DNA of 64,000 nucleotides from Minisyncoccota bacterium (GCA_041658985.1 JBAZZC010000001.1:65813-129812), one strand, 5' to 3'; shown: positions 23,097-54,739, counted from the first letter of the stretch. Notes: a model not told the origin generated them from the letters alone. Made by a program: numbers and translations.

Positions 23097-23633
23097 ATGA
23101 GTGTAATTAAACACAAAAATCAGCGGGTTGGTATTTTTATTGATACACAAAACTTATACCACTGCGCTAAAAACATTTATGGTGCGAAAGTAAACTTTGA
23201 CCAGGTGGTCAAAGACGGTTTAGCAGGAAGGTCTCTTACTAGGGCTGTGGCCTATGTCATCACCACAGAGGCAGGAGATGAGAAAAATTTTTTTGAGGCC
23301 CTGGGGAAAATGGGTATTGAAACAAAAACAAAAAACCTCCAAATATTTTCAGGTGGGGCAAAGAAAGGGGATTGGGATGTTGGACTGGCAGTTGATGTAA
23401 TCAAACTTGCCCCAAAACTTGATGCTATTATTCTTGTAACCGGTGATGGAGACTTTATACCGTTGGTTGAATATCTTCAAAACGTAGGTTGTCAGGTTGA
23501 GGTTATGTCATTTGGCAAAGCCACATCTGCAAAACTCATAGAAGCCAGCGACGACTTCATTGATTTAGATGAAAATCCTCGCAAATATTTAATTGGTTTT
23601 GGTATAAATAGACGTAGTCGCAGAACCACATAA
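23097..23633 (+). CDS. NYN/LabA-like domain protein
   Basis: RVGIFIDTQNLYH...ILVTGDGDF pattern typical of NYN (LabA/YacP-like) nuclease fold. Confidence 0.6.
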   Translation: MSVIKHKNQRVGIFIDTQNLYHCAKNIYGAKVNFDQVVKDGLAGRSLTRAVAYVITTEAGDEKNFFEALGKMGIETKTKNLQIFSGGAKKGDWDVGLAVDVIKLAPKLDAIILVTGDGDFIPLVEYLQNVGCQVEVMSFGKATSAKLIEASDDFIDLDENPRKYLIGFGINRRSRRTT

Positions 23634-23638
23634 ACAAA

Positions 23639-37202: not shown

Positions 37203-37311
37203 TCCCGTTAGAAGTCACGGGAATCTAAACATGAAGGTAAATTATCAACAAAGTAATTCAGGTAGAGTAGTCATCTCGCGAAAGTGGGTGATTCCCTACT
37301 TCTAACGGGAT
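37202..37311 (+). repeat. ~110-bp element with 15-bp terminal inverted repeats ATCCCGTTAGAAGTC overlapping the start codon of the downstream gene (copy A; copy B 56308-56411)
   Basis: atcccgttagaagtc ... acttctaacgggat; ATG of 37310 CDS lies in 3' arm. Confidence 0.7.
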
Positions 37312-38953
37312 GATAGAAAGATTTTTGGATGACATAAAAAGTCAAAAAATAACCGTGGGACAATGGCTACTTGGTTTCGCCGGAATAATGTTTATCCGTT
37401 TCTTTTTAGAAGCCTTATCCAATCCGACAACCTCTGGAGTTATTGCTTCGGACCCATACACTCTTGTTCATTACTTGCTATTTTTTATTACAGTAATGAT
37501 GGGCACAGCCTGCATTGTTGGATTTTTTAGTAAGGATTTTTTAAGTGCGGGAAAATTAATTTTGTTTGCCCTGCCTCTTTCTTGGCTAGCTCCAATTTTG
37601 GATATTGTGATTAGTCTAGGAAAGGGATATAGGATGTCCTATGTTTTTGATAGTCATCAAACCCTCCTTGTTGATTTCTTTAAATTTTTTAGTTTTCAGC
37701 CGATGCAATGGGCCACATATGGTATGCGTGTTGAAATAATAATTATTTTACTTGGTATTGGTTGGTATGTATGGTTAAAGAGAAAAACAGTCTTACCTAT
37801 AATTTTGGCGGTATTTAGCACATATTTTTTAATCTTTTTGATTGGTTCGGTTCCTGGGTTACTCTACACATTCACCCATATAAACAATGGAGTAGATTCA
37901 AACTCTTTGAGTGTATTTGGTTACATAAATAATTTGCTAATAGATTCAAACATTTTACATAACACCCTGCACGAAACCACTTTTTCTGTAACACCTCTTA
38001 GATTTTTTGAGTTAGGGTTTAATAAATTAATGTCTCAAATACTTTTTATCCTATCTTTTGTTTTTGTATCTATCTTGTTTTGGAAAATTGAAACAAAAAA
38101 ATTTAAAGCTGTTGTAAAAAACGCCCGTTTGGGTCGTATCTTTTTTTATTTGTCTTTACTCTTTTTAGGAATGGGTGGGGCATATACTTTGGGTTTCAAA
38201 TTAACCTCGTGGGTAGACATTTTGGGTGTTGTCTGTTTAGTGATTTCCTGGGTTGGTTTGTGGCTATACGCTGTACAAATTAACGACATAGCTGACATAG
38301 ACATAGACAAAATATCAAACAAAGAAAGACCACTGGTACAAGGGGTGATGACGACGAGCGACATGAAGGAGGTTGGTTTGATTTGGTTGGTTATCGCACT
38401 CTCTGGTTCGTGGTCGGCTGGATTTTATCCATTTTATATGTGTATTGTTGGTCTTTTTGTTTCACACATATATTCCGCAGAGCCATTTTGTTTAAAACGT
38501 ATTCCGGTATTATCAACTTTTCTTATAAGCATAGCCTCTCTTGTAACAATCCTTGCTGGTTTCTTTTTTGTCTCATGGGACAAAACATTTCAAACATTTC
38601 CATTGCTTCTGGCCCTAGGAACGCTTGTTGTATTTACATTGGAAATAAACATCAAAGATATGAAGGATATTGAGGGAGATAAAGCCAACGGAATAAAGAC
38701 TTTGCCGGTAATATTTGGAAAAAATGGCCCTCGGGTTGTGGGGTTATGTTTTGCCTTGAGCATACTTTCGGTTCCGCTGTTTTTGTCTTTTTATATTTTA
38801 TATATTATTTCTATCCCAGTTGCCATAATTAGCTATAGACTGATTACAAGAACTCCCTACCGTGAAAAACCCATATTTATCCTTCACTTTATTTATCTTC
38901 TTCTAATAGTATTACTTTTTATGGTTTCACCGTGGTTGGTTAATTTTTTGTAA
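37310..38953 (+). CDS. polytopic membrane protein with C-terminal UbiA-family prenyltransferase domain
   Basis: >=12 predicted TM helices; NDIADIDID (NDxxDxxxD) and KERPL motifs at 322-345. Confidence 0.6.
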   Translation: MIERFLDDIKSQKITVGQWLLGFAGIMFIRFFLEALSNPTTSGVIASDPYTLVHYLLFFITVMMGTACIVGFFSKDFLSAGKLILFALPLSWLAPILDIVISLGKGYRMSYVFDSHQTLLVDFFKFFSFQPMQWATYGMRVEIIIILLGIGWYVWLKRKTVLPIILAVFSTYFLIFLIGSVPGLLYTFTHINNGVDSNSLSVFGYINNLLIDSNILHNTLHETTFSVTPLRFFELGFNKLMSQILFILSFVFVSILFWKIETKKFKAVVKNARLGRIFFYLSLLFLGMGGAYTLGFKLTSWVDILGVVCLVISWVGLWLYAVQINDIADIDIDKISNKERPLVQGVMTTSDMKEVGLIWLVIALSGSWSAGFYPFYMCIVGLFVSHIYSAEPFCLKRIPVLSTFLISIASLVTILAGFFFVSWDKTFQTFPLLLALGTLVVFTLEINIKDMKDIEGDKANGIKTLPVIFGKNGPRVVGLCFALSILSVPLFLSFYILYIISIPVAIISYRLITRTPYREKPIFILHFIYLLLIVLLFMVSPWLVNFL

Positions 38954-39049
38954 TTTAAAACACCTGTCCTGTTAGAGTTAAAGCTTGTTTAAATAACGCA
39001 AAAAATATTTTTAAAATTAATTGTGAAGAACTCTAATAGGATGATATAA

Positions 39050-39192
39050 TTAATCCGCACACTAAATTTAGCATCGTTGCCTTGTGTTGTTACAACACAT
39101 AAGTTCAATCACTAAGTAATTGATACACTAGTTTGTATTAAACACGTAACAGGCAACAAAAAACACAATGCTAAAATTAGTGTGCGGATAAA
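39050..39192. promoter_or_regulatory. large inverted repeat (24-bp arms TAATCCGCACACTAAATTTAGCAT) with nested palindromes upstream of the T4SS-like cluster
   Basis: taatccgcacactaaatttagcat (39050-39073) vs atgctaaaattagtgtgcggataa (39168-39191); internal tgtgttg-tta-caacaca. Confidence 0.4.
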
Positions 39193-40007
39193 TGCCAAAC
39201 AACAGGATTTTATTTGTTTTAATTATTTGTTTCGGAGTTGTTGCTTCCGTTTATCTACTTGCAAGAAATTCCGCTAGCCCACAGACAATCGGGGACACAA
39301 CCGATGTTTCTGTAAACCCCTACATCAATCTAGATAAAAACACAAACAATGATTGGAAAAAAATTCTAGTAAACCTTGATTCAAGTAATAGCACCACTAC
39401 CATCCTGACAAATGAAGACCCAGGTGTATTTAATGAAACAACACTAACAGCACAAATGTCTCGCGATTTTCTTTCCCAGTATTTGTCGGCGATAAAAAAT
39501 GGACCAGTCACCCCAGAAGAGGCAGCAAAAATCGCAGAAACCACTCTCTTAATACCAGAATACACAAAAGGTGTTCGAGTAAAATATAACATCAAGAATC
39601 TGCATGTAATCAATAATACCAATACAAACACAATAGAAGTGTATGGAAATACGCTAAATCAAAGCCTGAAAGACAAATCTTCTCAGGTAAAAGAAAACCC
39701 AATAGAAATATTTAATAATGCCATAACCAGTGCAAGTGAAACAAAATTGGCTAAACTAGACCAAATTATTTTTCTAAACAAAAGTCTCCTAACTGACCTG
39801 CTCACAATGAATGTGCCTAAAAGTGCTATTGAGGTACATCTTGCCCTTCTTAATGTTACTAGTAGTCTTTTATCAGACCTAGAAGCAATGAGGTTGGTTT
39901 TTATAGACCCTGTTGCGGGCTTGATTGGAATTAGTCAATATCAAACAGATACTTTTTTGTTAAAAACAGCACTAACAAACATGAACACATACCTAATGCA
40001 AAACTAA
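39192..40007 (+). CDS. membrane-anchored hypothetical protein (first gene of T4SS-like cluster)
   Basis: N-terminal TM ILFVLIICFGVVASVYLL; Asn/Thr-rich. Confidence 0.5.
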   Translation: MPNNRILFVLIICFGVVASVYLLARNSASPQTIGDTTDVSVNPYINLDKNTNNDWKKILVNLDSSNSTTTILTNEDPGVFNETTLTAQMSRDFLSQYLSAIKNGPVTPEEAAKIAETTLLIPEYTKGVRVKYNIKNLHVINNTNTNTIEVYGNTLNQSLKDKSSQVKENPIEIFNNAITSASETKLAKLDQIIFLNKSLLTDLLTMNVPKSAIEVHLALLNVTSSLLSDLEAMRLVFIDPVAGLIGISQYQTDTFLLKTALTNMNTYLMQN

Positions 40008-40065
40008 AGACTTTTCAACAAAAATCCTAGTATTTAATAGATTAATTAATGTATAATAGACGTAA

Positions 40066-43000
40066 ATGAAAAAACTCTTTATAGCAATCATGATCGTTTC
40101 CCTTCTCTCAATTTCTGTCCCCCAAAAAGTAGAGGCCCAGTACATTGATATCATGAATCTTGCTAAGGAGTTTCCCCTTGATACGATCGCTACAGTTATT
40201 GGAAAAATAATGTTAAAAAAGTTAACTGCTCAAACAGTTAACTGGATAAATTCTGGGTTTAAAGGAAAACCGGCCTTTATTACAGACTCTAACCAGTTTT
40301 TTCTTGATATAGGAGATAACACTGCTTCACAATTTCTTTCGGAAACACAATTAAATAAACTGTGTAGTCCATTTAAAGCTGAAGTGAGATTGGCTTTGGT
40401 AAAGAATTACATACAGGAAGATAATTATACCTGTACATTAGACACTTTGAAAAACAACTATGATGCTTTCATAAGCGATTTTTCCAAAGGTGGTTGGACT
40501 GGCTGGTTTGAAATGACCCAAACCAGTGCTGGTAATCCATACAGCGCTTACCTTGCAGCAGAGAGTAAGTTGCTTACAACGGTTCAAAATAACAAGGCAA
40601 GGAAAGAAACCCAACTTGATCAGAGTGGCGGACTTTTGTCATTAGAAAAATGCAAGGAGGGAATGGAAATGACTATGGAAAAAGCAAAGCGGTTAACGGG
40701 AGCAAATTTTTCTGATATTTTAACTCCTGGATTTCTAGAATCTCAAGGTTTACCAGAACTCGGAGAATGTGCCGAAAGTGAAAAAGAAACGGTCACTCCG
40801 GGAATTGCTATAGACAAAGCCTTGGGTGATTCTCTTGGTTCTGGATGGAGACAACTTCAGGCCGCCGATGAAATAAATGAAATTCTTACTGCTCTGGTTA
40901 GCCAATTTATGAGCAAAGTCTTTGGAGATAAAGGTGGACTGGCTGGTGTAAGTAAATCATCAAACAGTAGTCCATCCTTCACATCCCAGTTGGAAAATGA
41001 ACCGGAACCACCACCGATAGACCCAGGTCAATTACAAATTACTCCTACAACAATGGTTTGTCTAACCAACGAAGATACTGGGGAACAAACTTGTGAAATA
41101 AAACCAGGAATAATAAAAGGGCCAGAGTGGCTTGAAAATATAGTTCCTATTGACGGTGAAACCGGAAAAGGGCCTGGCACTCCAGGCGAAATACCTCCCG
41201 GCTTAAGTGGTATATGTGATAGTATCGCATCAGAAAGAGGAAAATTTCCAGCGGGGACTATCTCCAGAGAAAACATACGAACAATTATAGAAAATGCCGC
41301 CGGAAGCAATAATGCTTCAGGCTGGGGAATGTTAGAAAAAAAGAGTGGAGCAAATTGTACTGGTGTTTCATGCGATATTGTCTTCCATGGCCCCACTTGT
41401 TACATATATGATGTATTAGGTTCAGCAACCGGCTCTGGTGATTTGGGTGGACCGGCAACTCCGCAATGTAATTTTGCTGGAGGAAATATGGACCGAAGCC
41501 GATGGGTTGGGGTGGGTAGTGATACAAGAGGCAGTGGTCCTTGTGCTGTCGTGATTCCTGAGGGCGGAACCCCCCCAGGAGGAAAAAGTCCTTGTCTCAC
41601 TACTGGTAATATTTACGCTTCGTTCCTTAGAGAGGCCCTAACCTTTACTTTGGAAAAAAATCAAGCTCTGGCAAATTCTCTAAATAATAAAGAAAATTCG
41701 CTTAAGTTTTTAGCCTTGGTGGTTGAAGAATTAAAAATTTTTGGTGTCAATGCCACTGAAAAAGTTTTAAATGGAAACAACAATCCATCATCAGGAGATT
41801 TAATCGCTATATGGAAAACAGGCGATACAACAATGGAACGCTATGATGCAATTATAGGCGTTAATGCTGGTGACAGGACAATCGCTTCAGCCGTAACTTC
41901 AGAACAATTTGTTGGATTTATTCCACTCAACTGTACGATTTCTGGCGGTGGAACCAACTGCGGATGTCCAACCACTCCACCACCTCCTGCCCCAATTGTT
42001 CCAACTGTTAATCTGTCTGTTTCTCCTTCATCTATCGTTCCAGGGTCTTCGTCTATCATAACCTGGTCTTCTAACAACGCCACATCATGTACCTCATCTG
42101 GAGCTTGGACAGGAACGAGAGCAATTTCTGGCTCACAAACAGTTTCACCAACTGTTACCTCCACATACACCATATCATGTTCAGGAACTGGTGGAACAAA
42201 AAGTCAATCCGTGCAATTAACTGTTTCAACAGGCACTCCGCCAATATCTCCAATAACTCTTCCGAGTGACTATTTCACCTTCGTTGTTATTCCCGATACA
42301 CAGGGATATACCGCTTATGATTCGGTTAATTATAAAGGTTTTACAAATATCACAAATTGGATTGTAAAAAACTTCAGTGGTCTAAAAATTAAAGCGGCTG
42401 CACAAGTTGGTGACCTAATTAGTGAGTCATATCAAGCATACCAATGGGTAAACGCAAGTAATGCTATGAAGATTTTGGATGATGCAAAAGTTCCGTATGG
42501 AATTCTTGCGGGTAACCACGATTTCAGCACAACCACCCCACAAACAACAGATGTTTTTGCAAGATATTTCCCAGTATCAAGATATAATAAAAACTTTTGG
42601 TGGGGAGGAAGCTCGGACTCAAACAACAGTAATAGTTATATATTATTTAGTGGTGGTGGAGAAAATTATGTTCTTATTAGTATGCGCTATACCACACCAA
42701 GCAATAGGGTAGCAGATGCTACTTGGGCAAACTCAATAATAAAAAAATACCCTTCAAGCAAAATTATTCTTTCAACTCACGCATACTTAAACTATCAGGG
42801 TTTACGACAATACCAAGATCAAACCAACGGAGGACCTATTACTTCTTACGAAAACCTCTGGACGGATATTGTTTATCCGAATTCCAATGTTTTCATGGTA
42901 ATTTCTGGACATGATATGCCAAAAGGTGAAGCCTCTCGTATTGATAAAAATATAACTGGAAAAAATGTTTATCAACTTCTTTCTAATTACCAATCAAATG

Positions 43001-43236
43001 GCGCTGGTGGACAAGGTCGTTTGCGAAAAATGACCTTTGCTCCATCTCAAAATAAAATATATATCCAAACACTTGCAACCTCTCTCGCCACAACTACTTG
43101 TATTGACGGTACTATTGGAAAAAATATGAAATATCGTGTGGATGGTTGTTACGAAACCGATTCAAACAGCGAGTTTATTTTGGACCTAAATACTGGCACA
43201 GTCAATCCAGGACCATTTGAATTAAAATTACCATGA
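40066..43236 (+). CDS. large secreted protein: signal peptide, Ig-like/PKD-like domain, C-terminal calcineurin-like metallophosphoesterase domain
   Basis: SP MKKLFIAIMIVSLLSISVPQKVEA; beta-rich segment TVNLSVSPSSIVPGSSSIITWSS...TYTISCSG; phosphoesterase motifs VVIPDTQGY, GDLISE, GNHDF, STHAYL, ISGHDMP. Confidence 0.7.
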   Translation: MKKLFIAIMIVSLLSISVPQKVEAQYIDIMNLAKEFPLDTIATVIGKIMLKKLTAQTVNWINSGFKGKPAFITDSNQFFLDIGDNTASQFLSETQLNKLCSPFKAEVRLALVKNYIQEDNYTCTLDTLKNNYDAFISDFSKGGWTGWFEMTQTSAGNPYSAYLAAESKLLTTVQNNKARKETQLDQSGGLLSLEKCKEGMEMTMEKAKRLTGANFSDILTPGFLESQGLPELGECAESEKETVTPGIAIDKALGDSLGSGWRQLQAADEINEILTALVSQFMSKVFGDKGGLAGVSKSSNSSPSFTSQLENEPEPPPIDPGQLQITPTTMVCLTNEDTGEQTCEIKPGIIKGPEWLENIVPIDGETGKGPGTPGEIPPGLSGICDSIASERGKFPAGTISRENIRTIIENAAGSNNASGWGMLEKKSGANCTGVSCDIVFHGPTCYIYDVLGSATGSGDLGGPATPQCNFAGGNMDRSRWVGVGSDTRGSGPCAVVIPEGGTPPGGKSPCLTTGNIYASFLREALTFTLEKNQALANSLNNKENSLKFLALVVEELKIFGVNATEKVLNGNNNPSSGDLIAIWKTGDTTMERYDAIIGVNAGDRTIASAVTSEQFVGFIPLNCTISGGGTNCGCPTTPPPPAPIVPTVNLSVSPSSIVPGSSSIITWSSNNATSCTSSGAWTGTRAISGSQTVSPTVTSTYTISCSGTGGTKSQSVQLTVSTGTPPISPITLPSDYFTFVVIPDTQGYTAYDSVNYKGFTNITNWIVKNFSGLKIKAAAQVGDLISESYQAYQWVNASNAMKILDDAKVPYGILAGNHDFSTTTPQTTDVFARYFPVSRYNKNFWWGGSSDSNNSNSYILFSGGGENYVLISMRYTTPSNRVADATWANSIIKKYPSSKIILSTHAYLNYQGLRQYQDQTNGGPITSYENLWTDIVYPNSNVFMVISGHDMPKGEASRIDKNITGKNVYQLLSNYQSNGAGGQGRLRKMTFAPSQNKIYIQTLATSLATTTCIDGTIGKNMKYRVDGCYETDSNSEFILDLNTGTVNPGPFELKLP

Positions 43237-45350
43237 TTAGAATGCGAAAATTTTTACCACACATCCTAATACTTTTTGTCTTAGTGATTTTATTTATTCC
43301 AACTCATTTTGCACATGCTTGGGGATGGCCCGACTTAAACCCAATAACATATATTGTTGAATTTCTTTCAATGGCCTTAATTCAACTCGTAAGTTGGCTT
43401 ACTGGAATTGCTGGAATGTTTTTGAATTTTGTATTGAAGTATACCATCATAGATATGTCTGAACACCTAAAAACTCTAACGGGAATAAACATCGCCTGGA
43501 AAGTTGTCCGTGATTTGATAAATATTGTTTTTATATTTCTCCTTGTCTATGAGGGAATAAAGATGATTATAGGGTTAAGTGATATAGACAAAATCAGAAA
43601 ATTCGTTAGTATGATTGTTTTAGCATCGCTTCTTGTAAATTTCAGTTTATTTTTTACAAAAGTACTGATAGATGCATCAAATATAGTAACTATAAATATT
43701 TACCAGTCTATTCTTGGTCCTGACGCCAACACAAAAGACTATGGCCTGTCAGACCCCGTTATGAAAGCCATAGGGTTACAGGGTATATGGGACAGGAACG
43801 GAGAAGCAAACCCCGCTTCAGATCAAGGAGTGGCGGGGGTGCTTATTTTTGGGATTGGTTCAATCTCAATATTGTTAGTTGCAGCTTTTGTTTTTTTTGC
43901 TGTAGCTATCATATTTGTTGTTAGATACATAACTTTGATTGTCCTTTTAATGCTCTCACCCGTAGCCTATATGGGAATGGCTCTACCTTTCTTAAAAAAA
44001 TATGCTGATGACTGGTGGAATTCCCTGAATAGTCAGCTACTTTTTCCTCCCATTTACATGATAATGACTTGGGTTGTGTTAACTCTCATGTCAAGTGATG
44101 GTTTTATTCCCCAAAAAAGTTTTAAGGACTTGCTTCTTGGTGGTGGAGCAAAACCACAACCCGAAACTATGGGAATTGCCTTGAATTTTGCCATCATCAT
44201 AGGTCTCCTCGTTTTTTCTCTTATAATCGCAAAAAGCACCTCCACCAAAGGCTCAAAGTACATCGGGGATGCTACGGGCAAACTAACCGCCTTTGCCGGT
44301 GGAGCAGTAATGGGTGGAACGGCTAGACTTAGTAGGGCAACTTTGGGAAGAGCTGGAAATAACTGGGCAAATGATGAGGCCTTAAAAGAAAGAGCAGCTC
44401 AGGGTGGCTTCAAAGGTAGTGTTGCCCGTATGCAACTAGCCGCAGGAAACCAAATGGCCAAGAGGAGTTTTGATGTCAGAGCTGTAAAAGTAGCCGGGGT
44501 ATCGGCTGGAAGTCTGGCTGATTTTGGTAAAGTAGACAGCAAAAAAGAGAACTTTAAGGCAATACGGGAGGAGCAGACGAAGAAAGCGGAAGAAAAAATG
44601 AAACAGTACAAACCAAACGACGCTGCTTATGCAGAAGCAAAGAGAAAAGATGATGCAGCCAAAAAGCCTCTTGAAGAAGAACTAAAATCCTGGGAGGGTG
44701 TTGAGGGCGACCGGGCCGTACAAGCAAGGAAGAGAATCAATAAAGATATTCAGAGGGTTGCCCATTACGAAAAAGACCTCAACGATACATATAGGAGAAG
44801 AGTAGAACAAGCTGCTACTAGAGAAGAACACGGAATAAGTGAGGAAGAAAAAGCAAAAATAAAAGAGATACAAGATAAACAGGCGGCCGGTGAGAGAACC
44901 ACACAAAAGGAAGACGAAACCGTTAGAAAACTTATTGAAAAACACGAAAAGATTAAGAAGGAGGAAGACAGATTACAAGAAATAAAAGAGAGACAGGCGG
45001 CCGGTGGAAAGATTACATGGGGAGAACAAGCGGATCTTCTTGGCCTGCGTGATTGGAACTCAAAAGAGGCTGTCTGGCGAAAGGTGGCTGGTACGTTTGG
45101 AACAGCAACTCATGTGGTAGGGATGACTTCTTTACCAAAAACAAGAGAAGATAGAAAGGCGCTCGCACGTAAAATGAGGGCTGTTCCTAAGGAAAAGACT
45201 AAAGCAGAAAAAGCCCTAGAAGCAATGACTGCTGCCGCAAAAGAAGAAGCTGAGAAAGGGGGAGGGGCAGCTGGAGCAGCTTCAACTACCACACCAGGCC
45301 CAACACCACCACCAGGAGCTTCAGGTGGAACACCAGGAGCCACGACATAA
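43233..45350 (+). CDS. VirB6/TrbL-like polytopic membrane protein with charged coiled-coil and Gly/Pro/Thr-rich C-terminal tail
   Basis: 6-8 TM helices in first 330 aa, then KE-rich region and GGGAAGAASTTTPGPTPPPGASGGTPGATT tail; position upstream of VirB4-like genes. Confidence 0.4.
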   Translation: MIRMRKFLPHILILFVLVILFIPTHFAHAWGWPDLNPITYIVEFLSMALIQLVSWLTGIAGMFLNFVLKYTIIDMSEHLKTLTGINIAWKVVRDLINIVFIFLLVYEGIKMIIGLSDIDKIRKFVSMIVLASLLVNFSLFFTKVLIDASNIVTINIYQSILGPDANTKDYGLSDPVMKAIGLQGIWDRNGEANPASDQGVAGVLIFGIGSISILLVAAFVFFAVAIIFVVRYITLIVLLMLSPVAYMGMALPFLKKYADDWWNSLNSQLLFPPIYMIMTWVVLTLMSSDGFIPQKSFKDLLLGGGAKPQPETMGIALNFAIIIGLLVFSLIIAKSTSTKGSKYIGDATGKLTAFAGGAVMGGTARLSRATLGRAGNNWANDEALKERAAQGGFKGSVARMQLAAGNQMAKRSFDVRAVKVAGVSAGSLADFGKVDSKKENFKAIREEQTKKAEEKMKQYKPNDAAYAEAKRKDDAAKKPLEEELKSWEGVEGDRAVQARKRINKDIQRVAHYEKDLNDTYRRRVEQAATREEHGISEEEKAKIKEIQDKQAAGERTTQKEDETVRKLIEKHEKIKKEEDRLQEIKERQAAGGKITWGEQADLLGLRDWNSKEAVWRKVAGTFGTATHVVGMTSLPKTREDRKALARKMRAVPKEKTKAEKALEAMTAAAKEEAEKGGGAAGAASTTTPGPTPPPGASGGTPGATT

Positions 45351-45355
45351 ATACC

Positions 45356-46159
45356 ATGAATGACCAGGAAATAGACAATTTTATAAATACTTTATCCAAA
45401 CCCGTGAAAGAGTTTATCTTTGCTGGTGTCTGGGAAGAAAGAACAGCAGAGATTGCAAAAAAATATTCACTAAATGATACACAGGTAAATGATTTAGTAG
45501 ATACTGTGCTTTTTGTCCTTACTGGCCTGGAAAGTCCCGAAGCCCTTTTAGAAACAATTATTGCAGAGCTGGGTATCTCGAGACTCCTAGCTGAACAAAT
45601 AATGGATGACCTGGAAATAAGAGTTTTTGAATACGCCGTCAAAAGCATAGAGAAGAAAACGGACAGTAGCCAGCAGTTAGCATCTAGTAGCCAGGAAGAA
45701 ATTCAAAGTCAAAACAACCAAAACAAAACACCAGAAAAAGATATTCCAGAAATACGACCGAAAAATTTACCAGAAATAGAAGCAAACATTTTACCAATGA
45801 CTGAGCCCGGAGAAAAGGTGCGTATCGTGGAACAACCAATTAACACTGTCAAACCAGAAACAAAACCCCAGGAAACCCCAGGGGAAGCCCCTGGGCAAAC
45901 TTCGCGACCTTCTGAAATTATTTACAAAGCTGTGCCTGAACCCATTCCTGTACCACAATACACAGAAGCACCGGTTGAAAATAAAGTAATGCCTGCCCTA
46001 GAGACTGAAGCTAAACCATCTGAGCCAACCCCGACGCTCCGACCTAGTACGTTGGAGGTCGGGGAGCCGACTGAAAACGTCGGCTCAAAACCACCAGAAC
46101 CAGTACCACCTCCTGTAAAAAAATATGCTGTAGACCCATACCGAGAACCACTGGAATAA
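45356..46159 (+). CDS. hypothetical acidic/Pro-rich protein, carries family-2 palindromic insert
   Basis: ORF; PTPTLRPSTLEVGEPTENVGS segment encoded by palindromic element. Confidence 0.5.
   Translation: MNDQEIDNFINTLSKPVKEFIFAGVWEERTAEIAKKYSLNDTQVNDLVDTVLFVLTGLESPEALLETIIAELGISRLLAEQIMDDLEIRVFEYAVKSIEKKTDSSQQLASSSQEEIQSQNNQNKTPEKDIPEIRPKNLPEIEANILPMTEPGEKVRIVEQPINTVKPETKPQETPGEAPGQTSRPSEIIYKAVPEPIPVPQYTEAPVENKVMPALETEAKPSEPTPTLRPSTLEVGEPTENVGSKPPEPVPPPVKKYAVDPYREPLE
46029..46083. repeat. in-frame intragenic palindromic element (family 2), copy 2
   Basis: ccccgacgctccgacctagtacgttggaggtcggggagccgactgaaaacgtcgg. Confidence 0.75.
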
Positions 46160-46236
46160 ATGCCTGTATAATGTATAAGGTATAATGTATTTGAGTCCAT
46201 ACATAATACTTTATACATAATACTTTATACATAATC

Positions 46237-46683
46237 ATGCGTTATCAAGTACCACAATTTATTGAAATAGAAGACAAAATCATTGGCCCACTGACCATAA
46301 AACAATTCACATATATTGTTGGTGGTGCCGGAATGGTTTTTATTTTTTACACATTTTTACCTATATACATAGCCATATTACTCATAGCAGTTGTTGTTCC
46401 TCTTTCTTTGGCTTTGGCTTTTTATAAAATAAATAACAAACCATTTATTGATTTTCTAGAATCTGCTTTTATCTACTATACAAAACAAAATCTTTACATT
46501 TGGAAAAAAGAACCAAAATCGCCTCCACGGCGATCCGCCGACGAGGCGGAAAAATTATCCGAATTAAGTGAGATATATGTTCCTCGTTTGTCTGATAGTA
46601 AATTGAAAGAGTTGTCCTGGACACTCGATATAAACGAAAACTTAAATCCACTTACGGGAGAAGACGGAAAAACGACAAGGTAG
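46237..46683 (+). CDS. small two-TM protein, VirB3/PrgI-like by position and topology
   Basis: two adjacent hydrophobic helices (AGMVFIFYTFLPIYIAILLIAVVVPLSLALAF); precedes VirB4-like genes; contains family-1 palindrome 46534-46550. Confidence 0.4.
   Translation: MRYQVPQFIEIEDKIIGPLTIKQFTYIVGGAGMVFIFYTFLPIYIAILLIAVVVPLSLALAFYKINNKPFIDFLESAFIYYTKQNLYIWKKEPKSPPRRSADEAEKLSELSEIYVPRLSDSKLKELSWTLDINENLNPLTGEDGKTTR
46534..46550. repeat. in-frame short GC palindrome (family 1)
   Basis: tccgcc-gacga-ggcgga encoding RRSADEAE. Confidence 0.7.
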
Positions 46684-46780
46684 AAAACCGGTATAAAGTA
46701 TTACGTATAATGTATGAGAAGCAGAAATAATCTTACTATCTATCCTTTATACCTTATACATTATACGTTATACTAGTACT

Positions 46781-47419
46781 ATGGTAGTTTCTTCAAAAGC
46801 AACACAAGAGTTTGTTCCAATAAAAGAGGTGCGTGATGGCATCCTTGTTTTGAAAGATGGCTCAATGCGAGGAGTTGTTTTAGCATCTTCTTTAAACTTT
46901 TCTCTTAAATCAGACGACGAACGAAATGCTATTTTGATGCAATTTCAGAATTTTCTTAATTCCTTAGATTTTCCTGTACAAATCTCTATAGAGTCAAGAA
47001 GGTTAGATATAAGGCCATATATTGCACTTCTGGAGGAAAGGTACAAAGAACAAGTCAACGACCTGATGAAAATCCAAACTCAAGAATATATTGGGTTTGT
47101 TAAAAAGTTTACTGAAGACAACAACATCATGACAAAAAGTTTTTTTGTTATCGTATCATACGACCCAGCACTAATTAGTATCAAGGGAAGTGGACTGGGC
47201 AGACTACTAAAAAAGAAGACAACCGCAGAAGAACTGGAAAATAAACGGGTTAGTTTTGATGAAAACAGAACACAATTAGAACAACGTGTGTCTGTGGTAG
47301 AACAAGGTCTTTCCCAGTGTGGAATACGAGTAATACGATTAAAAACAGAAGAGGTGATAGAATTATTTTATAAAATATTTAATCCAGGAGACACAGAAAA
47401 ACCAATTAAAGTAAATTAA
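46781..47419 (+). CDS. VirB4 N-terminal-domain-like protein (split VirB4, part 1)
   Basis: EFVPIKEVRDGILVLKDGSMRGVVLASSLNFSLKSDDERNAIL resembles the N-terminal region of VirB4/TrbE ATPases; directly precedes ATPase gene. Confidence 0.45.
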   Translation: MVVSSKATQEFVPIKEVRDGILVLKDGSMRGVVLASSLNFSLKSDDERNAILMQFQNFLNSLDFPVQISIESRRLDIRPYIALLEERYKEQVNDLMKIQTQEYIGFVKKFTEDNNIMTKSFFVIVSYDPALISIKGSGLGRLLKKKTTAEELENKRVSFDENRTQLEQRVSVVEQGLSQCGIRVIRLKTEEVIELFYKIFNPGDTEKPIKVN

Positions 47420-47423
47420 TTTT

Positions 47424-49235
47424 ATGGGAATACTTGATTTTTTAAAACCCAAGAAAACCGAACCAGAAATATCTACCATTCTCCCTCAAGAGATATATGA
47501 TTCTAATTCGCTAGAATTGAAAGACATTATCGCTCCCAGTGCTCTTAAAATAACTCCGAAGGAAATCAATTTGGGAGAAAAAGTCTTACGAAGTTTTTTT
47601 GTTATATCTTACCCGCGATACTTGGGAGAGAACTGGTTTGCTCCGATTATCAACCTAGACAAAGTTTTTGACGTTGCGATTTTTATATCACCGATTGAAA
47701 CTTCCCAGGTTCTTCGAACCTTTCAAAAAAAAGTGGCGGAGGTACAAAGCCAAATCAACACCCGAGAATCAAAGGGGTTGGTTAGAAACCCAATGCTTGA
47801 CACGGCCTATCAAGACCTAGAAAACCTGCGAGACCAACTCCAACAAGCACAGGAAAAACTCTTTGATGTTGGTCTCTACATCACCATATACGCCGAATCA
47901 AGCGCCGAACTTGATAAAATTGAGTCGGAAATCAAGTCAATACTAGAATCCAAAATGGTTTACGTTAAACCAGCTCTATTTCAACAAGAACAAGGGTTTA
48001 AAACAACTATTCCTCTTGGAACAGATGAATTAAAGGTTTATAGTAAGCTAAATTCATCTCCACTCTCATCTCTTTTTCCTTTTGTTTCGTTTGACCTGAC
48101 ATCAGACCGCGGAATATTGTACGGAATAAACAGGCATAACTCCTCCTTAATCTTATTTGATAGATTTAGTCTAGAAAACTATAATTCAATCACTTTTGCA
48201 AAGTCAGGTTCTGGAAAATCGTTTATGACTAAACTGGAAATCTTACGTACTTTAATGTTTGATTCCGACGTTATTGTGATTGACCCAGAAAAAGAATACG
48301 AGTACTTGGCAGAAGCGACAGGGGGCAGATATTTCAACATTTCTTTAAACTCGGAACACCATATAAATCCATTTGAATTAGCCCCTCCAGGTGAAGGTGA
48401 GTCTTTTGCAAACGTTCTTCGTCAAAATACTATTAATCTTGTCGGTCTGTTTCGTATCATGATGGGTGGGCTAAGCCAAGAAGAAGATGCTATTATTGAC
48501 CGAGCTATTTCAGAAACCTATGCCCTGAAAGACATCACCGCTGATTCTAATTTTGAAAATGTTGAACCTCCACTTATGTCTGATTTTGAGCTTGTTCTCT
48601 CTGGTATGGAGGGGGGAGATTCGTTGGCCCAGCGACTGACAAAATATACTCGTGGAACATGGTCCGGCTTTATAAACAGACCAAGTAATGTTGACATAAA
48701 CCAAAAGTTCATTGTTTTTTCTTTACGAGACATGGAGGATGAACTAAAACCAGTTGCAATGTATATCGTCACACACTATATATGGAACATGATTAGAAAA
48801 AAACTAAAAAAACGCCTCTTAGTAATTGACGAGGCTTGGTGGATGATGAAGTCCCCCGACACCGCTTCGTTTTTACTCTCTATGGCAAAAAGAGGGCGAA
48901 AATATTTTTTGGGTTTGGCTACAATTACCCAAGATGTTGATGATTTTATGAAATCAGAATATGGTGCTTCCATTATACGCAACTCTTCCATCCAAATACT
49001 TCTCAAACAATCACCTTCGTCAGTAGACCAGCTCCAAGAGGTTTTTAAACTCACAGATGAAGAAAAATACCTACTACTTGAATCTGATGTTGGCGAGGGG
49101 ATTTTCTTTGCTGGACTAAAACATGTGGCGATAAAAATCAAGGCATCCTACACAGAGGAGCAAATAATTACATCCGACCCATCACAAGTCTTGGCCATCA
49201 AAGCTGCAAGAAGAGAGTTGGAACAAAGTAGTTAA
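47424..49235 (+). CDS. virB4: VirB4/TraC-family type IV secretion ATPase (part 2, ATPase domain)
   Basis: Walker A FAKSGSGKSF, Walker B LLVIDEAWWMM, VirB4-like C-terminal motifs. Confidence 0.8.
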   Translation: MGILDFLKPKKTEPEISTILPQEIYDSNSLELKDIIAPSALKITPKEINLGEKVLRSFFVISYPRYLGENWFAPIINLDKVFDVAIFISPIETSQVLRTFQKKVAEVQSQINTRESKGLVRNPMLDTAYQDLENLRDQLQQAQEKLFDVGLYITIYAESSAELDKIESEIKSILESKMVYVKPALFQQEQGFKTTIPLGTDELKVYSKLNSSPLSSLFPFVSFDLTSDRGILYGINRHNSSLILFDRFSLENYNSITFAKSGSGKSFMTKLEILRTLMFDSDVIVIDPEKEYEYLAEATGGRYFNISLNSEHHINPFELAPPGEGESFANVLRQNTINLVGLFRIMMGGLSQEEDAIIDRAISETYALKDITADSNFENVEPPLMSDFELVLSGMEGGDSLAQRLTKYTRGTWSGFINRPSNVDINQKFIVFSLRDMEDELKPVAMYIVTHYIWNMIRKKLKKRLLVIDEAWWMMKSPDTASFLLSMAKRGRKYFLGLATITQDVDDFMKSEYGASIIRNSSIQILLKQSPSSVDQLQEVFKLTDEEKYLLLESDVGEGIFFAGLKHVAIKIKASYTEEQIITSDPSQVLAIKAARRELEQSS

Positions 49236-49262
49236 TGGTAGCAAACAAACAAAAATAAGACC

Positions 49263-49961
49263 GTGAAAGAAACTACCAAAATAAATAGTTTACAAAATAT
49301 TCAAGACGGCTTTGAAAATGTTCCTGTTGTTAAAAATTTTAATGACATCCATCATGAAGTAAAAGAATCAAAAACAACAATAAAAGAGAGTGCTAAAATG
49401 ATAAAAAGTGAAACATCTCAGCAAATATTAGGTGGTATTCGTAGTGAAGGAACAAAGATTAAGAATAAACTCGAAACCTCTAGTGGAATACCCCTAACAG
49501 AAATTCAAGATAAATTTACTAAAGTTGGTCGTTTGATGAAAGACTCGGCGGCAAGATTTGAAAAAAGAAACAGGGTTACAGAAATAACTATTGTACTGAT
49601 GATTATGGTGGCTTTGTTTTATGATCTACTTCAGTTTCTTCTTGATTTGATACCTTTTGTTGGATGGATACTTTCTGGCCTTATTGGTATCTTTTCTTGG
49701 CTTACTTTTTATACTTGGACATCAATAAAAGGATGGGGTATGTCTGATTCTATTAAAAAGATTATAGTATCAAAAATTCTCCCGGCCATTGGTTGTGTGG
49801 GGGTCTTAAATATCGGACCAGAAATAACTGCCGGTGTTATTTTTACCATATTAATAGTTAAGGGGGAGGATGTTCTTTATAATAAATCTAAAGGTAGATT
49901 GGACAAAGAAGTATTGATTGAGGGCTCTAAGACATTGAATTATTTAAAGAAGTTGGTCTAA
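49263..49961 (+). CDS. membrane protein, hypothetical (T4SS-like cluster)
   Basis: soluble N-half, C-half with 3 TM helices. Confidence 0.45.
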   Translation: MKETTKINSLQNIQDGFENVPVVKNFNDIHHEVKESKTTIKESAKMIKSETSQQILGGIRSEGTKIKNKLETSSGIPLTEIQDKFTKVGRLMKDSAARFEKRNRVTEITIVLMIMVALFYDLLQFLLDLIPFVGWILSGLIGIFSWLTFYTWTSIKGWGMSDSIKKIIVSKILPAIGCVGVLNIGPEITAGVIFTILIVKGEDVLYNKSKGRLDKEVLIEGSKTLNYLKKLV

Positions 49962-49976
49962 TAAACAATTTTTATT

Positions 49977-51029
49977 GTGTATAAATACGTAGTGAAAGAC
50001 TGTTTGTGTGTTACAATAAAGTCAATGAGGCTATCTGTTTTTATTTTATCGTTTCTTTGTATCTTTGGGTTTTTTGGTGTTGCAAATGCACAGCTTGGTT
50101 TACCACAAACAGGAGTAAATGTTGAATTAGTTCCAGAAAATCCAGGACCAAACGAGACGGTTTATGTTTCCCTTGTAAGTTATGCAACAAATATAAACTC
50201 CGCAAATATCACATGGAAAGTGAACAGCAAAACGCAAAAATCAGGAATGGGAGAAAAAACATTTAGTTTTACCACCGGGGAAATAAACACAACCACCACA
50301 TTAGAAATTGTAATAGAAACACAGGAGGGGGAAACTATAGAAAAAACGTTTAGAATAAAACCGGTTGGTGTTGATTTGATTTGGGAAAGTGAGGGTTTTA
50401 TGCCGCCTTTTTACAAAGGTAAATCTCTCTTTAGTCACCAAAACAAGATAACCGTAATAGCTCTACCACACATAACATCTGCTGATGGAACACAAATTGG
50501 AGCTAAAAACTTAATTTATACATGGAAAAAAAATGGTTCAACAATAGAAAGTGTTTCAGGTTTTGGTAAAAACATTTATTCTTTTGTTTCTTCTTTAATT
50601 TCAAGACCTTTTGAAATAAGCGTAGAGGTTACAACCACTGATAACTCCGGGGTTGGCTATGCAACTTTAAACCTTGCTCCATCAGAGCCTCTTATTGTTT
50701 TTTATAAAAAGAATCCAATATACGGTATAGAATTTCAAAAGGCTCTTTCTGGGGCAGAAGAACTCAAAAATTCAAAAGAGATAACCGTAGTCGGTGTTCC
50801 TTTGTTTTTTGGAATAACAAATTTAAACTCGAATGACTTGTCATTTAAATGGTTTGTTAACGGTTCCCCAATAAATAATGACCCAACACAGTCAATACAG
50901 GTTTTCAGACAACAAGAGGGAACGAGTGGTATATCAAACATTTCACTTTCAATAGAAAATAGTAAAAAAATACTGCAGTATGCTTCAAGTAATTTTAATT
51001 TAATATTCGGTGAAAATAGTAGCCAGTAG
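49977..51029 (+). CDS. secreted hypothetical protein (T4SS-like cluster)
   Basis: signal peptide MRLSVFILSFLCIFGFFGVANA; beta-rich. Confidence 0.5.
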   Translation: MYKYVVKDCLCVTIKSMRLSVFILSFLCIFGFFGVANAQLGLPQTGVNVELVPENPGPNETVYVSLVSYATNINSANITWKVNSKTQKSGMGEKTFSFTTGEINTTTTLEIVIETQEGETIEKTFRIKPVGVDLIWESEGFMPPFYKGKSLFSHQNKITVIALPHITSADGTQIGAKNLIYTWKKNGSTIESVSGFGKNIYSFVSSLISRPFEISVEVTTTDNSGVGYATLNLAPSEPLIVFYKKNPIYGIEFQKALSGAEELKNSKEITVVGVPLFFGITNLNSNDLSFKWFVNGSPINNDPTQSIQVFRQQEGTSGISNISLSIENSKKILQYASSNFNLIFGENSSQ

Positions 51030-51063
51030 CCAGTAGCTAGGAGCTAGGAAAATGTAAAGAATT

Positions 51064-51906
51064 ATGAAAACAAAACTTCAAAAAATAATCCTCTCAACAA
51101 TCATAGTAGTTATGTTGTTTTCTGGTTTTACAGTAGCACATGCTATAAATGACTACACTATTATTGCTCCGCTCCCAAAAATAAGTGGCCCTATGAAACT
51201 AGGGGATTATCTTCCCGCCGCTTTTAACTTATCTATAGGCATAGCCGCCGCTTTGGCTTTTCTTGTAATTACTTGGGGAGGTATTACTTATGCTACGTCA
51301 GATGCTATTTCAGGAAAACAACAAGGCAAAGAGTGGATAACAAACGCTATTTGGGGATTGGTCTTGGTTATTGGAGCATGGATAATCTTATCCACAATAA
51401 ATCCACAAATTCTCAGGCTTGATTTGATTCTCAAAAACCCATCAGTAAAAACCGGAGAGACCTTAATAAATGACGGAGTACCTCTAAATAAAGAGCAGTT
51501 GGCTAACGATACTGCTATTAGAAACAGTTTAAATGGGGTTATTAACGTAAACTCCCCTGCCTGTGTAACTGGGGCCACGCGAGGGTGTACAAACGTAAAC
51601 GGTCTTCCTGGTAATGCTATTACGGGACTGGTTAGTTTAAATAGTGATTGTGGTTGTAATATCACAATAACAGGAGGAACGGAGGGTGGACATAAAACTC
51701 ATGGGGTCGGTAAGCCTATAGTTGACCTAAGACCAGACGTCTACCTAAATAAATATCTCACTGGAAGCACAGACTTACCACAAGACGGAACATCTAAAAT
51801 TGTAAATCTTCCAAACGGACAACGAGCCTCATTTACCTATGAAGCCTTAGGGGGTAACACTGGTGGAACATCAACAGGAAAACACTGGCATGTAGTAATT
51901 GAATAA
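51064..51906 (+). CDS. pilin-like (TrbC/VirB2-like) protein with C-terminal extension
   Basis: signal peptide ending AHA, two hydrophobic helices (LSIGIAAALAFLVITWGGITYA; AIWGLVLVIGAWIILSTI) typical of VirB2 pilins, then ~150-aa extra domain. Confidence 0.4.
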   Translation: MKTKLQKIILSTIIVVMLFSGFTVAHAINDYTIIAPLPKISGPMKLGDYLPAAFNLSIGIAAALAFLVITWGGITYATSDAISGKQQGKEWITNAIWGLVLVIGAWIILSTINPQILRLDLILKNPSVKTGETLINDGVPLNKEQLANDTAIRNSLNGVINVNSPACVTGATRGCTNVNGLPGNAITGLVSLNSDCGCNITITGGTEGGHKTHGVGKPIVDLRPDVYLNKYLTGSTDLPQDGTSKIVNLPNGQRASFTYEALGGNTGGTSTGKHWHVVIE

Positions 51907-51957
51907 TATGTCAAAAAAACTTTTTATTATTATAATATCTGTAGTCCTTGCTTTCTT

Positions 51958-53127
51958 TTGATTAGCCTCATTGGTTACTATTTTATTCTTCAGAGTAATC
52001 AAGGTGAGCCAGGTAGTGGTAGTAGTATTTTTCAAAACTTCTTTCCCTTCGGAGGAAACGCCTCCGTGGAAACACCGATTGTAGAGGAGCCTCCTGTAAC
52101 ACCACCGACAATAAACATCACAAACTACACACAAAAGCTACGTAAATTATCCACGGAGCCAGTAGCTGGAGCCGGAGTTTTAGATGTTAAAGCTGGAACA
52201 ATTGTTAGGTATATAGAAAGAGCAACGGGACACATTTTTGAAACAGAACTTTTTTCACCAAACCAAAACCGCATCTCAAACACCACCATACCTTTTGTCT
52301 ATGATGCCGTTTGGGGAAACAAAAACAATTCTCTTGTTGCTAGATATTTAAAAGATGACAATCAAACAATTGATACTTATGGGCTTTTAATCAAAGAAGT
52401 CGCCACTTCTACAGGAGGTGTTGTTTCGGCCATAAAATTTCCAGAAAACTTGAGTGATGTTTCTGTTTTTGGAAGCAGTGTTTTTTCTCTGGAGCAAAAA
52501 GCTGGTTCTTCGGTGGGATATGTTTCAAATTTTGATGGTAGTAAAAGAGTTCAGATATGGAATTCTCCCATCAAAGAACTTCTGTCTCAATATGTTAATA
52601 CAAAGACGGTTGCCCTAACAACAAAACCCCATCAAGAGGTGAAAGGATTTTTGTTTTTTGTGGACACAGGAAACGCCCAGATTAAAACAATCCTTGGAAA
52701 TATTTTAGGACTTTCCACTTTAGTGAATGACTTAGCCACACAAGTTCTCTATCTTGACCAAGAGGACACACCTAAAATGTTTGTGTTTGATACAAAAAAC
52801 AAATCATCCGTTACTGTCACCCCAACAACATTTCCAGAAAAATGTGTTTGGAGTAAAAAAGATAGAAATGTTTTTTATTGCGCCGTACCAGAAAGACTTG
52901 TTGATAGAGAGAGTTTGACCTCTTGGTATAGAGGGTCTCTCTCTTTAGCGGACAACCTTTGGAAATATGACGTAAAAAACAATACCTCTAGTATGATTAA
53001 GGGTTTGTTTACTGAAAGTGGTGAGCAAATTGATGTTATAAAACCAATTTTATCGGAAAACGAGCAATACCTGATTTTTATAAACAAGAGAGACAACTCT
53101 TTATGGAGTTTAGACCTAACAAAATAA
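51958..53127 (+). CDS. membrane-anchored hypothetical protein (last gene of T4SS-like cluster)
   Basis: N-terminal TM; beta-rich ectodomain. Confidence 0.5.
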   Translation: MISLIGYYFILQSNQGEPGSGSSIFQNFFPFGGNASVETPIVEEPPVTPPTINITNYTQKLRKLSTEPVAGAGVLDVKAGTIVRYIERATGHIFETELFSPNQNRISNTTIPFVYDAVWGNKNNSLVARYLKDDNQTIDTYGLLIKEVATSTGGVVSAIKFPENLSDVSVFGSSVFSLEQKAGSSVGYVSNFDGSKRVQIWNSPIKELLSQYVNTKTVALTTKPHQEVKGFLFFVDTGNAQIKTILGNILGLSTLVNDLATQVLYLDQEDTPKMFVFDTKNKSSVTVTPTTFPEKCVWSKKDRNVFYCAVPERLVDRESLTSWYRGSLSLADNLWKYDVKNNTSSMIKGLFTESGEQIDVIKPILSENEQYLIFINKRDNSLWSLDLTK

Positions 53128-54307: not shown

Positions 54308-54324
54308 AATTGAGTCAAAAGTTA

Positions 54325-54413
54325 AAAGTTTATAAAGTCTATAAAGAAAATCATTAAATTAGGTCATTTTTGACTACATTTTCAACCTTATGGACTTTAT
54401 GGACTTTCGACTT
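54325..54413. repeat. AT-rich inverted-repeat module R2
   Basis: aaaagtttataaagtctataaag ... ccttatggactttatggactttcgactt. Confidence 0.7.
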
Positions 54414-54415
54414 GT

Positions 54416-54553
54416 CTAGACTGTACTCAGTTTAGCTCTTCCTTTTCGTCTTCGTCTCAAAATGGTATTTCTGCCAGTTTTTGACTTATTACGCACCAAA
54501 AATCCATGTGATTTGGCTCGTTTTCTCTTTTTTGGTTGATATGTTTTTGACAT
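54416..54553 (-). CDS. rpmH: 50S ribosomal protein L34
   Basis: rc translation [45 protein letters not shown] (45 aa) matches L34; not in the >=60-aa ORF track. Confidence 0.9.
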
Positions 54554-54560
54554 AATGAAT

Positions 54561-54647
54561 AGTTATAAAGTTTATAAAGTTAAAAGTCTATAAAGTCAAG
54601 GCTGTTTTGTACTTACTTTACGAACTTTATGGACTTTATGGACTTTC
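54561..54647. repeat. AT-rich inverted-repeat module R3 (in rpmH-dnaA divergent region)
   Basis: agttataaagtttataaagttaaaagtctataaagtc ... ctttacgaactttatggactttatggactttc. Confidence 0.7.
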
Positions 54648-54739
54648 TACTGTTGTACACAACTTATACACATATTATTAACACATTGGCCGTTTTTTAA
54701 CAAGTACTATATTTCCTTATTACCTATATAATAAGAAAC

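Follow-up and report, generated by a model that had tools for sequence, protein, structure and literature searches.

A cluster of genes at positions 39192-53127 of a 64,000-nt stretch of DNA from a Minisyncoccota bacterium (GCA_041658985.1 JBAZZC010000001.1:65813-129812; this whole stretch, at its full length, is referred to as the window) was analyzed as a candidate type IV secretion system (T4SS) locus. Eleven consecutive, co-directional open reading frames (ORFs) were confirmed on the + strand at the coordinates given in the first-pass annotation, and the same eleven gene calls are present in public assemblies of the same organism. The gaps between the genes of the cluster range from -4 to 97 bp, and the eleven genes are probably transcribed as one tightly packed operon. 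The genes, designated g1 to g11, are the following:

39192..40007, + strand: g1, 271 aa, with an N-terminal membrane anchor, no family
40066..43236, + strand: g2, 1056 aa, secreted, modular
43233..45350, + strand: g3, 705 aa, polytopic membrane protein, probable VirB6/TrbL analogue
45356..46159, + strand: g4, 267 aa, cytoplasmic, no family
46237..46683, + strand: g5, PrgI family (VirB3-like), two-helix membrane protein
46781..47419, + strand: g6, TrsD-like, i.e., the VirB4 N-terminal domain as its own gene, ~212 aa
47424..49235, + strand: g7, short-form VirB4 ATPase, 603 aa, monoderm type (MPF_FATA, CD1110-like)
49263..49961, + strand: g8, small membrane protein with 2-3 helices, no family
49977..51029, + strand: g9, secreted, tandem immunoglobulin (Ig)-like domains, likely start at ATG 50025 (334 aa)
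51064..51906, + strand: g10, VirB2-like T4SS pilin with a conserved extracellular C-terminal domain
51908..53127, + strand: g11, membrane-anchored beta-propeller (TolB/DPP-IV-like), 406 aa when intact

Related loci were collected through VirB4 by scanning one genome per species; 592 relatives were found and 80 loci were kept, 46 of which have complete 10-kb flanks (the full-length loci), and gene mapping was possible in 43. The g7 product matched the NCBIfam profile "VirB4-like conjugal transfer ATPase, CD1110 family" with 379.9 bits (cut-off 325; E-value 2.5e-113) over profile positions 183-734 of 752, and it also matched Pfam P-loop_TraG (2.4e-30). Its Walker A (AKSGSGKS) and Walker B (LLVIDEAW) motifs are intact. 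More than 120 database clusters, all of ~603 aa, are 85-93% identical to g7, and among the best 120 the minority with a source name come from metagenome-assembled genomes (MAGs) of Paceibacteria, Parcubacteria, Zambryskibacteria or Patescibacteria, with the exception of one cluster labelled Nitrospira and of some labelled only "bacterium". Judged from its sequence, g7 is a monoderm, MPF_FATA-type VirB4 whose nearest relatives are found in the Patescibacteria.

The g6 product matched NCBIfam TrsD/TraD (E-value 1.5e-7, positions 15-200 of 201) below the profile cut-off, and only the N-terminal parts of VirB4 profiles, i.e., positions 2-174 of 792 in TIGR00929 and 2-120 of 752 in the CD1110 profile; a precomputed Pfam TraC-like match is also on record. 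Because g6 covers the N-terminal part and g7 the rest of the VirB4 profiles, the two proteins tile a full-length VirB4, which agrees with the initial description of a VirB4 split into an N-domain gene and an ATPase gene. The stop codon of g6 lies 4 nt before virB4, and a separate ORF of ~212 aa precedes a VirB4 of ~604 aa in 43 out of 43 mappable related loci, so that the arrangement is fixed among the relatives. A VirB4 gene broken by a frameshift or a stop codon was ruled out, since the relatives all have the ~212-aa and ~603-aa ORFs. On these profile and length data, the "split VirB4" is a conserved TrsD plus short-VirB4 arrangement, and not a disrupted gene. The combination of TrsD and VirB4 characterizes the pGO1 subclass of monoderm T4SSs and most Patescibacteria (PMC12102498), and only VirB4 is a commoner T4SS component than TrsD in the Patescibacteria (Quiñonero-Coronel et al. 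2025, PMC12102498).

Two further components were recognized above the family cut-offs. The g5 product, which had been taken for a small VirB3/PrgI-like protein with two transmembrane segments, has two adjacent hydrophobic helices and matched Pfam PrgI with 40.2 bits (cut-off 27; 5e-10), and it is present in 77 of the 80 related loci. The g10 product matched T4SS_pilin (PF18895) with 35.4 bits (cut-off 26.6; 1.1e-8). Residues 1-117 of g10 comprise a signal peptide and two helices, which form a helical hairpin after the signal peptide in the AlphaFold2 (AF2) model, and an extension of ~160 aa follows, as expected for the VirB2-like pilin with a C-terminal extension that had been proposed.

The large membrane protein g3 has a signal peptide and at least six further hydrophobic helices (seven hydrophobic segments), a charged coiled-coil and a Gly/Pro-rich tail. 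The first-pass annotation had called it a VirB6/TrbL-like polytopic protein with a long charged tail, and the topology fits this; the family matches were sub-threshold: the TrbL Pfam model gave such matches in 3 of 44 and 2 of 59 g3 orthologues (5 of 103 together), and a "TrbL_3 (weak)" match is on record for g3 among precomputed domains. No other membrane family recurred in Pfam searches with the g3 orthologues, and no match to g3 was found by sequence in the PDB or by tblastn against plasmids. The g3 family is large (14,591 representatives at 50% identity), and the gene is present in 46 out of 46 full-length loci. Both its topology and its operon position fit a probable VirB6/TrbL analogue. 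The g4 product consists of a small helical N-terminal domain and a Pro/Glu/Thr-rich low-complexity tail, which is probably disordered; no significant Pfam or NCBIfam match was obtained with it, and its positional orthologues in 43 loci vary in length and sequence. Because it has no hydrophobic segment, g4 is cytoplasmic and not secreted. In g8, the first helix has an Asp that is conserved in the alignment of the orthologues, which also revealed an LPxWT motif; a positional orthologue, usually of ~140 aa, is found in 35 loci. A role of g8 as a second pilin was rejected, because the profile-profile comparison with the pilin was negative. In all, six proteins of the cluster are without an assigned family, as had been anticipated for most of its components.

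We then considered the genomic setting of the cluster. It is flanked upstream by genes for a UvrD/PcrA helicase, KsgA and a UbiA-family protein, and downstream by a convergent yidC followed by the genes for RnpA, L34 (rpmH), DnaA, DnaN and a class A penicillin-binding protein (PBP). The order ksgA-[g1 g2 g3 g4 PrgI TrsD VirB4 g8 g9 pilin g11]-yidC-rnpA-rpmH-dnaA-dnaN-PBP is kept in 43-46 of the 46 full-length loci. With a GC content of 0.35-0.44, the cluster does not depart from the values seen across the window, and the only integrase fragment of the window (20352-20849) lies 18 kb from the cluster. Housekeeping genes lie on both sides of the locus, which keeps its syntenic place beside dnaA; it is therefore not an integrative conjugative element (ICE), and an ICE or plasmid origin was ruled out by synteny, flanking genes and composition together. 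The first-pass annotation had allowed for a relaxase-bearing ICE just outside the window; none was found in the 10 kb upstream and 7 kb downstream, the flanks of the cluster being of the housekeeping kind.

The integrase ORF itself (20352-20849, - strand, 165 aa) aligns with positions 22-172 of the Phage_integrase catalytic-domain model, its N-terminal part being missing or miscalled. About 2 kb from it (23097-24520, + strand) there are a gene with a NYN domain and an ORF carrying the NUMOD4 motif of homing endonucleases, and this group may be a small degraded mobile element that is not linked to the T4SS. In addition, the UbiA-family prenyltransferase gene (37310-38953, + strand, 547 aa), located between ksgA and the operon, was found in 4 of the 80 related loci. 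Since so few loci have it, the ksgA-operon junction is a variable insertion point. A promoter-like site is found in the gap that follows this gene:

39021..39050, + strand: TTGTGA-18-TATAAT with TG, in the 238-bp gap 5' of g1

Its position alone is suggestive, and it is possibly the promoter of the operon; in a scan for promoters and terminators, promoter-like sites were no commoner than in shuffled sequences, and no notable internal terminator was seen on the + strand.

The last gene of the cluster required a correction. At 51955, inside a run of T, the window is one T shorter than three independent public assemblies of this organism, and this 1-bp deletion frameshifts the N-terminal membrane anchor of g11. 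The intact gene begins at ATG 51908, with one base between this codon and the stop codon of the pilin gene, and encodes 406 aa; the TTG start at 51958 chosen in the first-pass annotation is a by-product of the deletion. Because the deletion is absent from the three assemblies and falls in a T-run, the apparent cause is an error of assembly or sequencing, or else a rare homopolymer-length variant. This bears on whether the cluster could be a decaying, non-working remnant of an integrated conjugative element, as its missing canonical parts and the frameshifted last gene might suggest. We find this reading hardly credible: the eleven genes are in order in 43-46 related species with a VirB4 79-93% identical, the ATPase motifs are intact, the frameshift is not shared by the other assemblies, and the GC content is unexceptional within the window.

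Conservation is graded along the cluster. Across the 80 loci the median identity is 79% for VirB4, 65% for TrsD, 51% for PrgI and ~30-35% for the extracellular proteins. VirB4 is thus very strongly constrained, and the gradient would fit a conserved motor with a fast-evolving, host-facing exterior. Identical VirB4 and pilin proteins are filed at NCBI under "Candidatus Paceibacterota bacterium" (assembly GCA_041664695.1), and the named relatives of the locus belong to Zambryskibacteria, Taylorbacteria, Wolfebacteria and Parcubacteria/Paceibacterota. From the label of these identical proteins and from the named relatives, the organism is assigned to the Paceibacteria/Parcubacteria, and not to the Saccharibacteria. 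Many MAGs with a VirB4 78-86% identical (loci L003, L008, L011 and others) were given the title "uncultured Candidatus Saccharibacteria bacterium" by their submitters; in view of the named relatives, this label is probably generic or mistaken.

No VirD4, VirB11 or relaxase had been seen in the cluster, and their absence was found to extend beyond it. Pfam scans of the ORFs of at least 200 aa in the 64-kb window revealed no VirD4/TcpA, VirB11 or relaxase domain, and none of the three was present, by precomputed domains, among the genes called in the 10 kb before and the 7 kb after the window on a 148.7-kb public contig, so that ~81 kb were inspected in total for a coupling protein or a relaxase, including 17 kb of flanks. 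Two giant ORFs without a Pfam domain, one of 1366 aa (13424-17524, - strand) and one of at least 2312 aa that runs to a contig end (L085:12585-19520), stay unassigned in these scans, and they may encode large surface proteins. In the proteins of the cluster and their orthologues there was no SLT, CHAP, NlpC or VirB8 match.

These results can be set against a true conjugation machine, with the relaxase and the coupling protein encoded elsewhere in the genome. The VirB4 is of a conjugative family (CD1110), and coupling protein (T4CP) homologues are present in most Patescibacteria genomes, rarely near virB4 (PMC12102498), which would suit such a machine. In a set of 3,035 Patescibacteria genomes, however, only 103 gave a relaxase (PMC12102498), the locus is a fixed part of the chromosomal core next to the replication origin and does not belong to a mobile element, and in Southlakia epibionticum the T4CP homologue is non-essential whereas the T4SS is essential (PMC12102498). 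Hence we consider conjugation very unlikely as the function of the locus.

The cluster was also compared with known systems. Patescibacteria T4SSs consist of TrsD and VirB4, PrgI, VirB6 and PF18895 pilins, and they are located near dnaA, dnaN, rnpA, rpmH and ksgA, most of all in the Paceibacteria and the Microgenomatia (PMC12102498). The Paceibacteria arrangement of this clade (Quiñonero-Coronel et al. 2025, Microb Genom, PMC12102498) has the same gene set and the same origin-side location as the window locus, and nothing essential differs; the window locus has one pilin gene in place of an array, this pilin is extended by a C-terminal domain that is conserved, and an Ig-like/metallophosphoesterase module is added to its g2. 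Of the features of the clade, VirB4, TrsD, PrgI, a pilin, no nearby relaxase or coupling protein and a position beside dnaA were found here, g3 being the probable VirB6, and those of a conjugative element were not: there is no coupling protein or relaxase in the ~81 kb and no carriage by a mobile element.

The T4SS of S. epibionticum (SEML1_0006-0019; Wang et al. 2023, Cell, PMC10633639) is also of the monoderm type and has pilin genes, and as in the window, its cluster has no recognisable coupling protein or relaxase. It differs in that the organism belongs to the Saccharimonadia, in its array of six divergent pilins, in the peptidase and lysozyme genes downstream of virB4, and in its accessory genes, which by their description are set apart from g1, g2, g9 and g11. 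The Firmicutes MPF_FATA systems (pGO1 Trs, the CTn2 CD1110 family and pCF10 Prg/Pcf) have the VirB4 family and PrgI in common with the window locus, and in pGO1 a separate TrsD-like gene likewise lies upstream of VirB4; a trio of PrgI, TrsD-like and DUF87-VirB4 genes is found on Firmicutes megaplasmids such as Geobacillus pGspE55-1, where an M23 peptidase gene follows. Unlike the window locus, the Firmicutes systems are borne on plasmids or ICEs; they encode a VirB1-type hydrolase in addition to a relaxase and a coupling protein, and they have no VirB2-like pilin. The locus is an ordinary member of an already known kind, the Patescibacteria T4SS described in 2020-2025 (further accounts of the Saccharibacteria system are given in PMC7427843 and PMC10633639, and in the 2025 review PMC12857230). 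The idea from which the analysis started, a minimal T4SS of the kind reported from the candidate phyla radiation, held in every testable part, the organism being a member of the Paceibacteria. Three points are possibly new: the C-terminal domain of the pilin, the modularity of g2 together with its link to DUF4141, and, in the Paceibacteria, the constant presence of the same six unassigned partners.

Of the secreted and anchored proteins, g1 has one hydrophobic helix (aa 6-24) and a positional orthologue in 42 related loci. Bacterial TSP3 calcium-binding repeats occur in 14 of 43 g1 orthologues, the window copy being without them, and a VirB8-like identity of g1 found no support, as there was no Pfam or PDB sequence match. 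The 1056-aa g2 protein has the signal peptide expected of the secreted protein that had been predicted, followed by an N-terminal module (aa ~25-300), Cys/Gly/Pro-rich linkers, an Ig-like domain and a metallophosphoesterase domain (aa 738-950, equivalent to 42277-42915), which matched Metallophos with 30.9 bits (cut-off 21.5). This last domain keeps the GD, GNHD, H and GH motifs, and its first motif reads DTQ instead of the usual D-x-H. The N-terminal module was found in 57 of the 80 related loci, and the C-terminal ~410 aa (residues 645-1056, with the Ig-like and metallophosphoesterase domains) in none of the 80 related species loci; on this distribution, g2 is read as a conserved N-module with a lineage-specific Ig-like/metallophosphoesterase addition.

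The first ~40 mature residues of the g2 orthologues matched DUF4141 (PF13605) in 18 of 76 cases (best 3.8e-8), with scores above the cut-off of 30 in 3 of 5 tested; the window g2 itself was below significance. DUF4141 proteins are encoded between traJ and traG of Bacteroides conjugative transposons (PMC10434189), and their likeness to the g2 orthologues is limited to this short N-terminal motif. The match hints that g2 may be an old T4SS subunit. An AF2 model of g2 aa 1-330 was mostly helical and of low confidence (predicted local distance difference test, pLDDT, 65), and no PDB sequence match to the N-module was found.

In g9, present in 77 of the 80 loci, weak Ig Pfam matches were obtained, and a g9 profile matched the Ig-like domains of phage T4 Hoc (E-value 7e-4). 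Its true start is probably ATG 50025 (334 aa) and not 49977, because a canonical signal peptide begins there and the gene is called so in the public contigs L082 and L084. The g11 product has an N-terminal anchor and a profile match to TolB (E-value 0.007), several of its orthologues gave sub-threshold DPPIV_N, DUF5050 and PD40 matches, and the gene was found in 46 out of 46 full-length loci.

The C-terminal domain of the pilin (aa ~140-280, equivalent to 51481-51903) is common to more than 100 full-length homologues of g10, in which H213, D221, E260 and H274 are invariant, and H210, W275, H276, four Cys and a GGTE motif nearly so. The AF2 model has a pLDDT of 90 overall and of ~97 in this domain. 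The domain is conserved and extracellular, and it probably binds metal. The pattern beta-strand-GGTEGGH-x2-H-x7-D ... E ... H-W-H recalls the LAS/M15 zinc peptidases, and a few homologues read S-x-H-x-x-G-x-A-x-D-I, which is M15-like. Peptidase_M15_4 matched 1 of 30 homologues, below threshold (4.6e-4). No peptidase match supporting an M15/LAS fold was obtained in a PDB profile search or in three fold searches with the whole, uncropped model, most hits of which paired its pilin half with helical hairpins, and a tblastn comparison with phage and plasmid sequences gave no support for a peptidase. By motif the domain may be an M15/LAS peptidase, an assignment that is unproven; a peptidase here would fill the missing VirB1 role. 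A bolder proposal is that the filament bears a metal-dependent catalytic domain, possibly an M15/LAS-like peptidoglycan peptidase, on every pilin subunit, and that g2 is a tip or adhesin subunit, VirB5-like and related to DUF4141, whose enzymatic payloads can be swapped, the one here being a metallophosphoesterase. We hold this to be speculative and rather unlikely; if true, the pilus would be an enzyme-bearing tool to breach or feed on the host envelope, beyond a conduit alone.

Taking the gene content, the synteny and the relatives together, the region is highly probably the core chromosomal T4SS locus of Paceibacteria, in a Patescibacteria-specific lineage derived from the monoderm MPF_FATA conjugation machinery. 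In a plausible model, TrsD, VirB4, PrgI and the VirB6-like g3 would form a cytoplasmic-membrane translocon, which would assemble a short pilin-based filament or conduit across the thin cell wall, and the anchored g1, the modular g2, the Ig-repeat protein g9 and the beta-propeller g11 would build or decorate the extracellular, host-facing part. The machine would serve contact-dependent exchange with the host, i.e., protein export or the uptake of host molecules, and not relaxase-driven conjugation. In S. epibionticum, the T4SS (by transposon sequencing, Tn-seq) and the pilins are essential for epibiotic growth, and comEC is dispensable (PMC10633639, PMC12857230). Because the Saccharibacteria T4SS is essential on the host and ComEC is not, contact-dependent exchange may be the likeliest role of the window locus.

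The same data bear on a competence-type T4SS that would take up host DNA for nucleotides or recombination, like Helicobacter ComB or the archaeal Ced system. Such a function would be in keeping with the lack of a detected relaxase or coupling protein, with the inability of Patescibacteria to make nucleotides, and with the location of the ABY1-class T4SS beside comF, recG and radA (PMC12102498). In S. epibionticum, however, deletion of comEC ends competence and not viability, whereas the T4SS is essential (PMC12857230), and competence depends on type IV pili (PMC12857230). Furthermore, no competence gene adjoins the window cluster, whose neighbours are ksgA, the UbiA-family gene and yidC, and the gene of a ComM-like Mg-chelatase ATPase 10 kb away (27906-29489) is not in synteny with it. 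DNA uptake is therefore judged unlikely, although less so than conjugation.

Several observations weigh against a host-exchange T4SS of the lineage described above. The functional data come from S. epibionticum only, the Paceibacteria having no genetically studied member. As T4CP homologues lie elsewhere in most Patescibacteria genomes (PMC12102498) and ~81 kb were inspected, a distant coupling protein could serve the locus. No VirB8-like or VirB1-like component was recognized in the cluster, the VirB6 assignment of g3 is sub-threshold, and a globular C-terminal domain of 160 aa on each subunit would be unusual for a VirB2 filament.

Other features of the window were noted in passing. A module of ~100 bp is duplicated on either side of rpmH (54416-54553, - strand), spanning 54316-54660, and contains the 9-mers YTATAAAGT and ACTTTATRG in either orientation; one 9-bp unit of the window (54624-54632) is missing from the public contig L082. 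These 9-mers may be binding sites that belong to an origin or to a regulator. Nearby, just one DnaA box is an exact canonical match, at 56170 between dnaA and dnaN. The 648-aa GatB (61392-63338, + strand) has a PD-(D/E)XK nuclease domain (PF13366, aa 223-336) inserted within the catalytic GatB_N domain, upstream of the C-terminal GatB_Yqey, which is unusual for an essential amidotransferase subunit. Finally, three paralogous TrmB-family regulators are encoded within 18 kb (12600-13388, 18383-19153 and 29994-30749, + strand).

The Patescibacteria T4SS is among the few candidate machines by which these ultrasmall, biosynthetically crippled bacteria might exploit their hosts, and it is essential in the one species tested. 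The locus described here is no new kind of system; it is a clean and complete Paceibacteria example, with eleven conserved genes. Since the Paceibacteria have no cultivated, genetically tractable member, the C-terminal domain of the pilin and the modular g2 would be useful handles for the biochemistry of this machine.

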